Assembly (NCBI RefSeq): GCF_054482525.1 | Contig: NZ_CM137006.1 | Reading direction: 5' to 3' (one strand) | Length of the DNA stretch: 64,000 nt | Position numbers and translations under genes: made by a program | Shown: positions 25,252-30,825 of the stretch, piece by piece | Numbering within the stretch: the stretch's first letter is position 1 | How the letters are laid out: every line of letters starts with the position of its first letter | Notes under the pieces: generated by a model | Databases searched by the model: none | Told to the model about the DNA's origin: nothing | Seen by the model: the letters and a program-made list of their open reading frames with translations, nothing else

Positions 25252-26037
25252 ATGAGTACAGCACTCGCAACGCTGGCTGGGAAGCTGGCTGAACGTGTCG
25301 GCATGGATTCTATCGACCCACAGGAACTGATCACCACTCTTCGCCAGACAGCATTTAAAGGCGATGCCAGCGATGCGCAGTTCATCGCATTGCTGATCGT
25401 CGCCAACCAATACGGCCTTAATCCGTGGACGAAAGAAATTTACGCCTTCCCTGATAAGCAGAACGGCATCGTTCCGGTGGTGGGCGTTGATGGCTGGTCC
25501 CGCATCATCAATGAAAACCAGCAGTTTGATGGCATGGACTTTGAGCAGGACAATGAATCCTGTACATGCCGGATTTACCGCAAAGACCGTAATCATCCGA
25601 TCTGCGTTACCGAGTGGATGGATGAATGCCGCCGCGAACCATTCAAAACCCGCGAAGGCAGAGAAATCACCGGACCGTGGCAGTCGCATCCCAAACGGAT
25701 GTTACGGCATAAAGCCATGATTCAGTGTGCCCGTCTGGCCTTCGGATTTGCGGGTATCTATGACAAGGATGAAGCCGAGCGCATTGTCGAAAATACCGCA
25801 TACACTGCAGAACGTCAGCCGGAACGCGACATCACTCCGGTTAACGATGAAACCATGCAGGAGATTAACACTCTGCTGATCGCCCTGGATAAAACATGGG
25901 ATGACGACTTATTGCCGCTCTGTTCCCAGATATTTCGCCGCGACATTCGCGCATCGTCAGAACTGACACAGGCCGAAGCAGTGAAAGCTCTTGGATTCCT
26001 GAAACAGAAAGCCACTGAGCAGAAGGTGGCAGCATGA
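25252..26037 (+). CDS. bet: Bet (Red-beta single-strand annealing protein)
   Basis: 261 aa, [46 protein letters not shown]..., reads as lambda Bet. Confidence 0.94.
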
Positions 26038-26714
26038 CACCAGACATTATCCTGCAGCGTACCGGGATCGACGTGAGAGCTGTCGAGCAGGGGGATGATG
26101 CGTGGCACAAATTACGGCTCGGCGTCATCACAGCTTCAGAAGTTCACAACGTGATAGCAAAACCCCGCTCCGGAAAGAACTGGCCTGACATGAAAATGTC
26201 CTACTTCCACACCCTGCTTGCCGAGGTTTGCACCGGTGTGGCTCCGGAAGTTAATGCTAAGGCGCTGGCCTGGGGAAAACAGTACGAGAACGACGCCAGA
26301 ACCCTGTTTGAATTCACTTCCGGCGTGAATGTTACTGAATCCCCGATCATCTATCGCGACGAAAGTATGCGCACCGCCTGCTCTCCCGATGGTTTATGCA
26401 GTGACGGCAATGGCCTTGAGCTGAAATGCCCGTTTACCTCCCGGGATTTCATGAAGTTCCGGCTCGGTGGTTTCAAGGCCATAAAGTCGGCTTACATGGC
26501 CCAGGTGCAGTACAGCATGTGGGTGACACGAAAAGATGCCTGGTACTTTGCCAACTATGACCCGCGTATGAAGCGTGAAGGACTGCATTATGTCGTGGTT
26601 GAGCGGGATGAAAAGTACATGGCGAGTTTTGACGAGATGGTGCCGGAGTTCATCGAAAAAATGGACGAGGCACTGGCTGAAATTGGTTTTGTATTTGGGG
26701 AGCAATGGCGATGA
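26034..26714 (+). CDS. exo: Exo (Red-alpha 5'-3' exonuclease)
   Basis: 226 aa, [40 protein letters not shown]..., reads as lambda Exo. Confidence 0.94.
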
Positions 26715-26893
26715 CGCATCCTCACGATAATATCCGGGTAGGCGCGATCACTTTCGTCTACTCCATTACAAAGCGAGGCTGGGTATTTCCCGGCCTTTCT
26801 GTTATCAGAAATCCACTGAAAGCACAGCGGCTGGCTGAGAAGATAAATAATAAACGGGAGGCGGTATGCACAAAGCATCTCCTGTTGAGTTAA
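26711..26893 (+). CDS. Lambda orf60a-like protein
   Basis: [46 protein letters not shown]... recalled as lambda orf60a. Confidence 0.65.
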
Positions 26894-27057
26894 GAACGAG
26901 TATTGAGATGGCACATAGCCTTGCTCAAATTGGAGTCAGGTTTGTGCCAATACCAGTAGAAACAGACGAAGAATTTCATACGTTAGCCACATCCCTTTCA
27001 CAAAAGCTGGAAATGATGGTGGCGAAAGCAGAAGCAGATGAGAGAGACCAGGTATGA
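26866..27057 (+). CDS. Lambda orf63-like protein
   Basis: 63 aa ORF in the lambda exo-xis region; recalled as orf63. Confidence 0.6.
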   Translation: MHKASPVELRTSIEMAHSLAQIGVRFVPIPVETDEEFHTLATSLSQKLEMMVAKAEADERDQV

Positions 27058-27067
27058 CAACCACTGA

Positions 27068-27349
27068 ATGCATTTTTCTGGCAGCGGGCTTCATATTCTG
27101 TGTGCTTATGCTTGCCGGCATGGGGCTTGTTCAGTGACACCTCAGCAAGAAAACGCCCTTCGCAGCATTGCCCGTCAGGCTAATTCTGAAATCAAAAAAG
27201 CCAGACAGCAGTTTCCGGATAAAAACGTCGATGACATTTGCCGTAGCGTACTAAAGAAGCACCGCGAAACGGTAACGCTGATGGGATTCACACCGACTCA
27301 TTTAAGCCTGGCGATCGGCATGTTGAACGGCGTCTTTAAGGAACGATGA
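27068..27349 (+). CDS. Lambda orf61-like protein (start uncertain)
   Basis: C-terminal part (...SVTPQQENALRSIARQANSEIKKARQQ...) recalled as lambda exo-xis region orf61. Confidence 0.45.
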   Translation: MHFSGSGLHILCAYACRHGACSVTPQQENALRSIARQANSEIKKARQQFPDKNVDDICRSVLKKHRETVTLMGFTPTHLSLAIGMLNGVFKER

Positions 27350-27447
27350 ACATGAAAAGCAAAATCATCAGGGAGCTACAGGCTCCTTTTTTATTATTCG
27401 CATTTACCCTCAAGCGTATTAACCAACAATTCAGGGATTAATGAAAG

Positions 27448-27666
27448 ATGGCAGACATCATTGATTCAGCATCAGAAATCGAAGAATTACAGCGCAATAC
27501 AGCAATAAAAATGCGTCGTCTGAACTACCAGACTGTATCCGCAACTCATTGTTGTGAGTGTGGCGATCCGATAGATGAGCGAAGACGCCTGGCTGTTCAG
27601 GGTTGTCGGACTTGTGCAAGTTGCCAGGAGGAGATCGAACTTAAGAACAAACAATGGGGACTGTGA
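27448..27666 (+). CDS. TraR/DksA-family C4 zinc-finger protein
   Basis: 72 aa with CxxC-N17-CxxC (CCECGDPIDERRRLAVQGCRTCASCQ) and acidic N-terminal helix, typical of phage TraR-like RNA polymerase-binding proteins. Confidence 0.7.
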   Translation: MADIIDSASEIEELQRNTAIKMRRLNYQTVSATHCCECGDPIDERRRLAVQGCRTCASCQEEIELKNKQWGL

Positions 27667-27713
27667 TGGCCTCAAAGCAGCAAATTTCAACATCGTCCAA
27701 CTGAGGTGTAAAA

Positions 27714-27953
27714 ATGTTCAGAATCATTTTTCCTAACACCTGGTACGTCGACCATCACGGCACTCCCTGCAAAATCCTGCGTTCTACCCACAACAAAGTT
27801 CACTACATCCGAAAAGGCAGAACATGTATCGCCAGCATGTTCCGCTTTAATCATGACTTTGAACCTGTTAGTAAAGTGGAATCAGAGCGGATAGCCGAAG
27901 AGATCGATACAGCAGAACACATTAAGAAGTTACGCGCCATACGCAGGAAATAG
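27714..27953 (+). CDS. Hypothetical protein (79 aa)
   Basis: ORF with ATG start between the TraR-like gene and xis; no family recognised. Confidence 0.4.
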   Translation: MFRIIFPNTWYVDHHGTPCKILRSTHNKVHYIRKGRTCIASMFRFNHDFEPVSKVESERIAEEIDTAEHIKKLRAIRRK

Positions 27954-28092
27954 AAAAATTGATAAATTCAATACTGCATTTCTCAGCATTAAATTTATCT
28001 CTATGACCAGTCAAGAGATGTACCTGCCATGAGCTTAATATCATGTCAGATATATCGGTCACAAACTCCCTCAGCAGCTAAGAGGAGGACAA

Positions 28093-28329
28093 ATGTCTCG
28101 ACTAATCACTTTACAGGACTGGGCTAAAGAAGAATTTGGGGACTTAGCACCAAGTGAGCGAGTTCTGAAAAAATACGCGCAAGGGAAAATGATGGCCCCA
28201 CCCGCTATAAAAGTTGGTCGCTACTGGATGATTGACCGAAATTCCCGTTTTGTAGGAACGCTTGCAGAACCGCAACTCCCAATAAACGCAAACCCAAAAC
28301 TCCAACGGATAATCGCTGATGGCTGCTAG
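28093..28329 (+). CDS. xis: Excisionase (Xis-like)
   Basis: 78 aa; N-terminus MSRLITLQDW... parallels lambda Xis MYLTLQEW...; AGGAGG RBS; 3' end overlaps int start. Confidence 0.7.
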   Translation: MSRLITLQDWAKEEFGDLAPSERVLKKYAQGKMMAPPAIKVGRYWMIDRNSRFVGTLAEPQLPINANPKLQRIIADGC

Positions 28330-29461
28330 ACCCCGATCTCACAAAATCTCTATACCCAATTTATATTGCAAATTAGATAAGCGAACCGGAAAGGTATATT
28401 GGCAATACAAACATCCACTATCCGGTCGTTTTCATAGCTTAGGAACTGATGAGAATGAAGCAAAACAAGTTGCTACTGAAGCAAATACCATTATTGCTGA
28501 ACAACGTACCCGACAAATATTAAGCGTCAATGAGCGTCTAGAAAGAATGAAAGGCAGGCGCTCAGACATTACGGTGACAGAATGGCTTGATAAATATATT
28601 TCTATCCAGGAGGACAGGCTGCAACATAATGAACTAAAACCCAACTCCTATCGGCAAAAAGGTAAACCCATTCGTCTTTTCCGTGAGCATTGTGGAATGC
28701 AACACCTCAAGGATATTACCGCACTTGATATTGCCGAAATAATTGATGCTGTAAAGGCTGAAGGTCATAACAGGATGGCGCAAGTCGTGAGAATGGTGTT
28801 GATCGACGTCTTCAAAGAAGCACAACACGCAGGACATGTTCCGCCAGGATTTAACCCAGCGCAGGCAACAAAACAACCGCGAAATCGAGTAAACCGCCAA
28901 AGATTATCACTGCCCGAATGGCAGGCAATATTTGAAAGCATAAGCAGACGGCAGCCCTATTTAAAATGCGGCATGCTACTTGCTCTTGTTACTGGACAAC
29001 GTTTAGGCGATATCTGCAATTTGAAATTCTCTGATATATGGGACGACATGTTGCACATTACTCAGGAAAAAACCGGTTCAAAACTTGCTATTCCGCTTAG
29101 CCTGAAATGCGATGCTCTGAATATTACCCTTCGTGAAGTTATATCTCAGTGCAGGGATGCTGTTGTTAGTAAATATCTGGTCCATTACCGTCACACTACC
29201 TCTCAAGCAAACAGAGGAGACCAGGTTTCTGCAAATACTCTTACAACGGCTTTTAAAAAGGCCAGGGAAAAATGTGGCATAAAATGGGAGCCAGGAACTG
29301 CGCCCACATTTCATGAGCAGCGATCTCTGTCAGAACGGTTATATCGGGAACAGGGTCTGGATACGCAAAAGTTGTTAGGTCATAAATCCAGAAAAATGAC
29401 CGACCGATACAATGATGATCGTGGTAAAGACTGGATTATCGTAGATATCAAAACAGCATAG
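28319..29461 (+). CDS. int: Tyrosine integrase, lambda Int family
   Basis: 380 aa; motifs shared with lambda Int (RSHK near N-terminus, ...VTGQRLGDICNLKFSDI..., ...TFHEQRSLSERLY..., ...LLGHKS...RY.DDRG..W); adjacent to the attachment junction. Confidence 0.9.
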   Translation: MAARPRSHKISIPNLYCKLDKRTGKVYWQYKHPLSGRFHSLGTDENEAKQVATEANTIIAEQRTRQILSVNERLERMKGRRSDITVTEWLDKYISIQEDRLQHNELKPNSYRQKGKPIRLFREHCGMQHLKDITALDIAEIIDAVKAEGHNRMAQVVRMVLIDVFKEAQHAGHVPPGFNPAQATKQPRNRVNRQRLSLPEWQAIFESISRRQPYLKCGMLLALVTGQRLGDICNLKFSDIWDDMLHITQEKTGSKLAIPLSLKCDALNITLREVISQCRDAVVSKYLVHYRHTTSQANRGDQVSANTLTTAFKKAREKCGIKWEPGTAPTFHEQRSLSERLYREQGLDTQKLLGHKSRKMTDRYNDDRGKDWIIVDIKTA

Positions 29462-29471
29462 AAAATAGCCA

Positions 29472-29509
29472 GTTTTGGGGAAGGGTTTTGGGGAAAGTTT
29501 TGGGGAAGA
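29472..29509. repeat. Three tandem GTTTTGGGGAA(A/G) repeats, candidate arm-type Int binding sites of the att junction
   Basis: Direct repeats at 29472, 29485 and 29497 between the int stop and the icd terminator hairpin. Confidence 0.4.
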
Positions 29510-29574: not shown

Positions 29575-30825
29575 TTACATATTCTTGATGATCGCGTCAC
29601 CAAACTCTGAACATTTCAGCAGTTTAGCGCCTTCCATCAGACGTTCGAAGTCATAGGTTACAGTCTTGGCGTTGATCGCGCCTTCCATACCTTTAACAAT
29701 CAGGTCTGCGGCTTCAGTCCAGCCCATATGGCGCAGCATCATCTCAGCGGAGAGAATAATAGAGCCTGGGTTTACTTTGTCCTGACCGGCATATTTCGGC
29801 GCAGTACCGTGGGTGGCTTCAAACAGGGCGCATTCGTCACCGATGTTTGCGCCTGGGGCGATACCGATACCGCCGACCTGTGCAGCCAGAGCGTCAGAAA
29901 TGTAGTCACCGTTCAGGTTCATACAGGCGATAACATCATATTCAGCCGGACGCAGCAGAATCTGTTGCAGGAATGCATCAGCAATCACGTCTTTAATGAC
30001 GATCTCTTTGCCGGTATTCGGATTTTTAACTTTCAGCCACGGGCCGCCGTCGATCAGTTCACCGCCAAACTCTTCACGCGCCAGCTGGTAGCCCCAGTCT
30101 TTAAACGCGCCTTCGGTGAATTTCATGATGTTGCCTTTGTGAACCAGGGTCACAGAGTCACGATCGTTAGCAATTGCGTATTCGATCGCTGCACGAACCA
30201 GACGTTTGGTGCCTTCTTCAGAACACGGCTTAATACCGATGCCGCAATGTTCCGGGAAGCGAATTTTCTTCACACCCATCTCTTCACGCAGGAATTTAAT
30301 CACTTTCTCAGCGTCGGCAGAGTCTGCTTTCCATTCGATACCCGCATAAATGTCTTCCGAGTTTTCACGGAAGATAACCATATCGGTCAGTTCAGGGTGT
30401 TTAACCGGGCTTGGGGTGCCCTGGTAGTAACGTACCGGACGCAGGCAGATATAGAGATCCAGCTCCTGGCGCAGGGCAACGTTCAGAGAGCGAATACCGC
30501 CACCAACCGGAGTGGTCAGCGGGCCTTTGATGGCAACGCGATATTCACGAATCAGATCAAGGGTTTCAGCAGGTAGCCAGACATCCTGACCATAAACCTG
30601 TGTGGATTTTTCACCGGTGTAAATTTCCATCCAGGAGATTTTACGCTCGCCTTTATAGGCTTTCTCGACTGCAGCGTCGACCACTTTCAGCATGGCTGGG
30701 GTTACATCTACACCGATTCCATCACCTTCAATGTAAGGGATAATCGGATTTTCAGGAACGTTGAGTTTGCCGTTTTGCAGGGTGATCTTCTTGCCTTGTG
30801 CCGGAACAACTACTTTACTTTCCAT
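29575..30825 (-). CDS. icd: Isocitrate dehydrogenase (NADP), 3' end contributed by the prophage
   Basis: 416 aa, [38 protein letters not shown]..., ends ...FGDAIIKNM. Confidence 0.95.

Follow-up and report, generated by a model that had tools for sequence, protein, structure and literature searches.

The window, by which we mean the whole stretch of 64,000 nucleotides analysed, is part of an E. coli chromosome. From its left end to approximately position 29,500 it is occupied by a lambdoid prophage, the early-left (pL) operon of which runs from left to right on the + strand (Table 1). Beyond icd follow rluE, nudJ, mnmA, hflD, purB and phoPQ. The icd site is the attachment site of phage 21, and the order xis-int-icd is identical in that phage. 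Taken jointly with our readings of the two genes discussed below, the locus is likely to be the int-proximal part of the leftward early operon in a lambdoid prophage that has integrated at E. coli icd.

Table 1. Features of the prophage from bet to the attachment site, in window coordinates
Feature	Position	Strand	Basis or remark
bet	25252-26037	+	early-left operon
exo	26034-26714	+	early-left operon
orf60a / DUF1317	26705-26893	+	upstream side of the gene pair
orf63 / DUF1382	26866-27057	+	upstream side of the gene pair
orf61-like ORF, 93 aa as listed	27068-27349	+	phrog_303, E 1.8e-42; exo-xis block, upstream neighbour
Intrinsic-terminator-like hairpin: 8-bp GC-rich stem, 3-nt loop, then U-run	27370..27397	+	scan; fold -10.2 kcal/mol, z -4.1; 50 nt upstream of the orf73 orthologue
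Putative orf73 orthologue: 72-aa TraR/DksA-family C4 zinc-finger protein, ATG start	27448..27666	+	PF01258, phrog_54, identity to lambda Orf73, motif alignment
Shine-Dalgarno GAGGTG of the DUF4222 gene	27703..27708	+	read in the sequence; 5 nt before the ATG
79-aa DUF4222 protein, ATG start: basic; predicted SH3/Tudor-like five-stranded beta-barrel (residues 10-51) and C-terminal helix (54-78, motif E-x3-H-I-K-K-L-R)	27714..27953	+	
Mosaic junction in the last codons of the DUF4222 gene	27934..27943	.	megablast matches H24 and H25 stop at query 1244 and 1235
P21-type excisionase, xis	28093-28329	+	PF07825; phage 21 annotation
Tyrosine integrase, int	28319-29461	+	PF09003 and PF00589; phage 21 annotation
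icd	29575-30825	-	prophage end; icd and neighbouring genes seen in locus L004

Two small genes, 47 nt apart, were predicted to lie between the orf60a/orf63/orf61 block and xis. ORF, Pfam and PHROG annotation all bear out this placement, and the coordinates originally given for the pair (27448..27666 and 27714..27953) match the ORF list exactly. On comparison with their relatives both can be regarded as true genes and not chance ORFs, since each scores above its Pfam gathering threshold (37.3 bits against 24.9, E 2.8e-9, for PF01258 in the 72-aa product; 69.6 bits against 27, E 1.6e-19, for DUF4222, PF13973, in the 79-aa product), each matches a PHROG family (phrog_54, "DksA-like zinc-finger protein," E 3.6e-26; phrog_285, E 2.9e-35 over residues 1-79), length is kept in homologues down to 35% identity, and both are under purifying selection. 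Across the fetched relatives dN/dS is approximately 0.1 for the TraR-like gene and 0.25-0.3 for the DUF4222 gene; in the latter, third codon positions hold 41 of the 66 variable sites.

No promoter-like site was found ahead of either gene in a sequence scan of the + strand. The hairpin upstream of the pair would, from its structure, act as a terminator; its stem, loop and U-run are identical in lambda, and a single base at the foot of the stem differs in phage 21 (three-way alignment). If it does function in this way, expression of both genes from pL would need antitermination by N. The lack of a + strand promoter-like site of their own, together with the hairpin, makes it most likely that both are expressed from pL as delayed-early genes, by N-antiterminated read-through, as has been reported for lambda orf73. 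The ribosome-binding region of the 72-aa ORF is weak. We considered the name tL3 of lambda for the hairpin (27370-27388); it was not confirmed in the literature found, and the hairpin is left unnamed.

Neither gene is new to the databases, automatic annotation having picked up both in the E. coli genomes and phages inspected. An 801-bp block (27300-28100) is matched in 3364 of 5426 complete E. coli genomes, 1551 of these at 80% or more of the block length, and in 184 phage records. In the E. coli records listed, the products are named "TraR/DksA family transcriptional regulator" and "DUF4222 domain-containing protein," and strain G5 encodes a 79-aa protein identical to that of the window. A search of IMG/VR for related loci returned close relatives only (89-97% identity); the diverse contexts described below were taken from contigs encoding homologues and from phage records.

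The TraR-like protein and its lambda counterpart

The original prediction assigned the 72-aa product to the TraR/DksA family of zinc-finger proteins, and rightly so. The PF01258 search that it proposed gives the score listed above, over residues 33-64, and the comparison that it proposed with lambda orf73 is equally clear: the two proteins are 87% identical over 71 aa. The lambda gene is unannotated in the lambda record and was recovered between orf61 and ea22. Sequence matches were also obtained to the TraR chains of the RNA polymerase-TraR complexes 5w1s and 6n57/6n58 (F TraR, E 8e-5) and to YbiI (2kgo).

The window protein was aligned with F TraR, lambda Orf73 and six other phage homologues. 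Across these nine homologues D6, A8, C35, C38, C56, C59, R46 and R47 are invariant, and position 3 is either D or E. The zinc site is C35-x2-C38-x17-C56-x2-C59; loss of the CxxC spacing on careful alignment had been named as grounds for giving up the assignment, and the spacing is invariant, F TraR included. The tip of the N-terminal helix reads D3-I-I-D6-S-A8 (DxxDxA), and R46/R47 are equivalent to the Arg pair R48/R49 of TraR, so that the TraR/Orf73 motifs are all kept. AlphaFold2 predicts a helix at residues 2-33, the zinc knuckle and a C-terminal helix at 57-69. The length of 72 aa fits the TraR subfamily (about 70-75 aa, with no DksA-type coiled coil). Two extra cysteines, Cys36 and Cys53, are found as in lambda Orf73. 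The protein scores 53.9 bits against NCBIfam TIGR02419 (C4_traR_proteo), below the curated cutoff of 59.7; F TraR reaches 80.7. Since the experimentally validated lambda Orf73 also falls short (54.7 bits), the cutoff leaves out the whole lambdoid branch and is no argument against function. No second TraR-like ORF with a CxxC-N17-CxxC pattern was found on scanning the window.

Lambda Orf73 has been studied in detail (PMC9239242). The purified protein binds RNA polymerase and inhibits rRNA (rrnB P1) and ribosomal-protein promoters; it complements a dksA-null strain, slows host growth, is expressed early from pL after induction, and raises burst size, phage yield being approximately 4-fold higher (PMC9239242). 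Binding in the secondary channel of RNA polymerase and inhibition of rRNA promoters without ppGpp, the function typical of the TraR subfamily, have been shown for it, and Gopalkrishnan et al. link the DxxDxA tip, the zinc site and the Arg pair to the active-site region of the polymerase, the rim helices and beta'Si3 (PMC9239242). Orf73 inhibits promoters and barely activates them, and its authors suspect that the two extra cysteines limit activation (PMC9239242).

The likeness between the two proteins extends to length (73 aa in lambda), the same six cysteines, and the shared DxxDxA, ExxRRRL and CxxC-17-CxxC motifs. Both genes follow orf61 and the conserved hairpin in the pL operon, and the DNA upstream is identical. 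Lambda Orf73 and the window protein differ by nine substitutions, which fall chiefly within the C-terminal helix (EEIELKNKQWGL against EDLELISKQRGSK) and at positions 27, 29 and 30. What lies downstream also differs, namely DUF4222 in the window and ea22 in lambda. F-plasmid TraR, the structure of which is available in complex with RNA polymerase (PDB 5W1S, 6N57/6N58), has the same three-element architecture and functional motifs, and presumably the same mechanism; it differs in belonging to a conjugative plasmid rather than a phage, in sharing only 33% identity with the window protein, and in having two cysteines fewer.

It is highly probable that the 72-aa protein is the orthologue of lambda Orf73 and works by the TraR-type mechanism. 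This mechanism has been shown for lambda Orf73 and TraR and is carried over here on the strength of the 87% identity to Orf73 and the full conservation of the motifs. With no need of a DNA site, the protein would insert its N-terminal helix, tipped by DxxDxA, into the secondary channel of the host RNA polymerase, and the zinc knuckle and C-terminal helix would touch the rim helices, beta'Si3 and betaSi1. In this manner it would mimic DksA with ppGpp, and after prophage induction or infection would turn off rRNA and ribosomal-protein promoters, resulting in a higher phage yield. Its potency may differ from that of Orf73, given that several residues of the C-terminal helix are unlike those of the lambda protein. 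This reading is not new, the experiments suggested with the original prediction having already been published for the lambda orthologue. The value of the gene as a discovery is small, as it is a near copy of one whose product has a published mechanism and phage phenotype.

The DUF4222 protein and its genomic contexts

The 79-aa ORF had been put down as belonging to no known family. This is right only as regards biochemical function; the family is DUF4222 (PF13973), a name routinely given by PGAP. Residues 3-52 align with positions 1-52 of the 53-position Pfam model. A search of 5.8 billion proteins yielded 101 clusters, all from Enterobacteriaceae or their phages and all DUF4222 where named, and a profile search found 996. 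An exhaustive phmmer search of 1.84 billion representatives returned only 40 clusters, which marks the protein as a member of a narrow enterobacterial subfamily. Homologues down to 35% identity keep a length of 78-81 aa.

The AlphaFold2 model (pLDDT 82.9, from a 34-sequence alignment) consists of strands at residues 10-13, 18-24, 28-33 and 36-41, a short helix (42-48), a strand (49-51) and a long helix (54-78). Both the DUF4222 membership and the SH3/Tudor-like barrel fold are almost certain. The protein is basic (pI 9.9; 16 K+R versus 9 D+E). Near-invariant positions in the same alignment are D13, G16, I21, Y31, R33, G35, F45, F49 and E50 and, in the helix, I60, E65, H69, K71, L73 and R74. 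No significant sequence relative was found in the PDB, either with the single sequence or with the 34-sequence profile; the best match, to nuclear-receptor zinc fingers (E 0.046), is spurious. Another match, to the 476-aa repeat protein P0112, was likewise spurious. No NCBIfam models were found for DUF4222, RgdR or the orf61-like ORF.

The C-terminal helix (residues 54-79; window 27873-27950), which is basic, lies outside the Pfam DUF4222 model. Its motif (H/E)-I-K-K-(L/M) is shared by members of the lambdoid subfamily and can still be made out in RgdR (L003 18305-18604).

RgdR (ECs1581), encoded by island OI-51 (Sp7) of E. coli O157:H7, is the only member of the family to have been studied (PMC3378721). 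It activates the LEE1 promoter, represses motility and raises Congo red binding; in EMSA it produces a non-specific DNA shift, and its authors propose a co-factor role (PMC3378721). The RGD motif at residues 20-22 is needed for activation of the T3SS, and orthologues are 83-94% identical to ECs1581, approximately 99 aa long and possess an N-terminal extension (PMC3378721). RgdR matches PF13973 at E 2e-23. Like the window protein it is small, basic and encoded by a mobile element, and its DUF4222 domain is followed by a C-terminal helix with I-K-K-(L/M). The differences are considerable. The two proteins are 29% identical over 45 aa, and the window protein lacks the 13-aa N-terminal extension of RgdR. 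P7-N8-T9 aligns with R20-G21-D22, and L22 with K35; many other lambdoid DUF4222 members have RGQ at the RGD position. The setting differs too, rgdR being located in a PICI/P4-like island, on the upstream side of a primase gene, and the window gene ahead of xis-int within the pL operon of a lambdoid prophage. The low identity, the missing extension and RGD motif, and the other genomic context make the 79-aa protein, as far as comparison of the two goes, a distant paralogue within DUF4222 and not an orthologue of RgdR. Its pI of 9.9 is compatible with non-specific DNA binding such as that of RgdR. Literature searches on DUF4222 in phage biology, PF13973 and vb_24B_1c revealed nothing beyond RgdR, and no experiment on a lambdoid DUF4222 gene.

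Fifteen lambdoid contexts were compared, in which DUF4222 is from 34% to 100% identical to the window protein. These include phage 21, SfI, Turner, a prophage at the DLP12 site, HK639, Klebsiella phage 2b, Raoultella, E. coli and Salmonella prophages, phiP27, ASU11, phi24B and a P22-like contig. In all fifteen the gene lies 0.2-1.4 kb upstream of the integrase gene, usually directly before xis (loci L005, L089-L101 and L103, with the window). The neighbouring integrases are of at least four types, namely Arm-DNA-bind_1, _2, _3/P4-like, and types with no arm-domain match. We found no published mention of this positional rule. A TraR-like gene sits immediately before DUF4222 in three independent lineages, the two genes being -1 to 47 nt apart; two further lineages carry one within the same operon, and about five lack it, DUF4222 having no TraR-like gene nearby in phiP27/ASU11, L096, L101, HK639 and the PICI with RgdR.

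Phage 21, SfI and lambda-like environmental phages (e.g., Perceval and 4A7) carry both genes, with 87-100% protein identity to the window; the TraR-like protein of SfI is 100% identical. The module of phage 21 (xis, int and the icd attachment site) is that of the window, although phage 21 contains an extra 110-aa ORF between the TraR-like and DUF4222 genes (L002 3470-3802), without a Pfam match; the window lacks this ORF. Phages of the SfI and DLP12 types combine a different xis-int module with a 92-aa variant of DUF4222. In lambda, ea22, ea8.5 and orf55 take the place of DUF4222. A relationship between DUF4222 and lambda Orf55, which is in the equivalent position, was considered, and hhalign of the profile showed none.

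Three different xis-int modules are found linked to the TraR-DUF4222 allele (87-98% identity), L093, L094 and L103 carrying other integrases. A mosaic junction falls in the last codons of the DUF4222 gene. The DNA upstream of it is shared, at 98%, with phages that have other xis-int modules, and the DNA downstream belongs to the P21-type module. The junction explains the two C-terminal variants of the protein, one ending in AIRRK (79 aa) with the P21-type integrase module, the other in DMRSKSRGNHGIIQPHTR (92 aa) with the SfI-, DLP12- and Turner-type modules. One allele with three unrelated xis-int modules, and a junction at the 3′-end of the gene, indicate that DUF4222 travels with the exo-xis block and not with int-xis.

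Two deletion chimeras were noted among the homologues. P0081 ("ybl17") joins the N-terminus of the orf61-like protein to the C-terminal half of DUF4222, the TraR-like gene being deleted; P0101 (phage D2 "Ea22") joins the N-terminus of lambda Ea22 to the C-terminal helix of DUF4222. P0134, at first sight a natural TraR-DUF4222 (Rosetta-stone) fusion, is a +1 frameshift read-through.

Possible roles of DUF4222, and minor observations

What remains of value at this locus is DUF4222, which is common, under purifying selection and situated beside the integrase in every lambdoid context examined, and has a studied relative that regulates virulence genes. A phage phenotype or a binding partner would fill a gap in the lambda-type exo-xis region. 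Our best guess, a tentative one, is that the protein modulates transcription in the manner of RgdR. Co-transcribed with the TraR-like gene, it would act as a low-specificity co-factor binding nucleic acid or protein, rather than as a sequence-specific regulator, and would modulate transcription of host (or phage) genes in early lytic development. This proposal draws on family membership, fold, charge and position in the operon. We count in its favour the strong Shine-Dalgarno sequence, the purifying selection and the lack of a + strand promoter-like site of its own, and against it the distant similarity to RgdR and the different element in which RgdR is found.

The constant proximity to integrase genes of at least four types might instead point to an accessory or architectural factor of site-specific recombination, tuning excision or integration by Xis and Int. 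SH3-like barrels include non-specific DNA benders, and a basic protein whose relative RgdR binds DNA non-specifically would suit such a role. We nevertheless think it rather unlikely, because one allele (87-98%) occurs with three unrelated xis-int modules and the junction lies at the 3′-end of the gene, because lambda does without DUF4222, because other genes part it from xis or int in some phages, and because the PICI homologue adjoins a primase and has transcription phenotypes. Another alternative is that the two products form a physical pair. DUF4222 would bind the TraR-like protein, or would sit next to it on RNA polymerase, with the beta lobe as one possible site, where bacterial Tudor-like domains are known to dock. 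DUF4222 is without a nearby TraR-like gene in about five lineages, and lambda has Orf73 without DUF4222; moreover, the fold matches are generic, and in an AlphaFold2 run on a Gly-Ser-linked construct (paired 14-sequence alignment), a weak test without PAE or coordinates, the halves folded separately with the linker unstructured, and no complex was predicted (pTM 0.39). A physical pair thus seems very unlikely.

The exo-xis region, a highly mosaic one, is not required under laboratory conditions (PMC8614690), and chimeras that truncate DUF4222 exist (P0081 and P0101), as would be expected if the ORF were a dispensable passenger of a variable region, or served some unrelated host-takeover or anti-defence function. 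The dN/dS of 0.25-0.3, the length of 78-81 aa held down to 35% identity, and the near-invariance of D13, I21, Y31, F45, F49, H69, K71, L73 and R74 argue for a selected function, and we hold this alternative to be highly improbable. In a broader scheme, DUF4222 would represent a second, unrecognised class of phage modulators of host transcription or the nucleoid, Tudor/SH3-like barrels that dock on RNA polymerase or DNA. With the TraR-like protein it would then make up a conserved two-gene cassette for host takeover, located in enterobacterial lambdoid phages where the early operon approaches int, and RgdR would be a domesticated member. We regard this scheme as distinctly unlikely.

Several minor features of the surrounding DNA were recorded. 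A 31-aa ORF at 27346-27441 is an annotated gene in phage 21 ("putative secreted protein") and SfI; it is made up largely of the hairpin at 27370-27397 and its U-run, had no Pfam or NCBIfam match, and is probably a transcription signal rather than a gene. An AT-rich inverted repeat with a 16-bp stem (27961-27999) immediately follows the stop codon of DUF4222, where the P21-type xis-int module starts. As RNA it folds at -17.4 kcal/mol (z -6.0) on the - strand, followed by AAUUUUUCUAUUU, and at -7.4 kcal/mol on the + strand. A scan of 28000-28330 showed no promoter-like site on the - strand. The repeat looks like either the intrinsic terminator of a leftward transcript antisense to xis or a protein-binding palindrome.

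The orf61-like ORF is unbroken at 93 aa in the window, with phrog_303 matching over its full length; PGAP and the phage 21 annotation use an internal start that gives 71 aa. In the lambda reference (L001 3213-3525) a frame change divides this sequence into two ORFs, orf61 (61 aa) and another of 60 aa, and lambda orf61 looks like a truncated version of the longer protein. The remainder of the prophage (window 1-24900) resembles an annotated O169:H41 prophage (89% coverage, 97% identity) and has the look of a complete lambda/DLP12-type element. Its cargo would, by this similarity, be in the style of DLP12, comprising the ybcK recombinase, ybcL and ybcM and, with less certainty, an emrE-like gene, a porin and bor, the match within the window being one of ORF sizes only.
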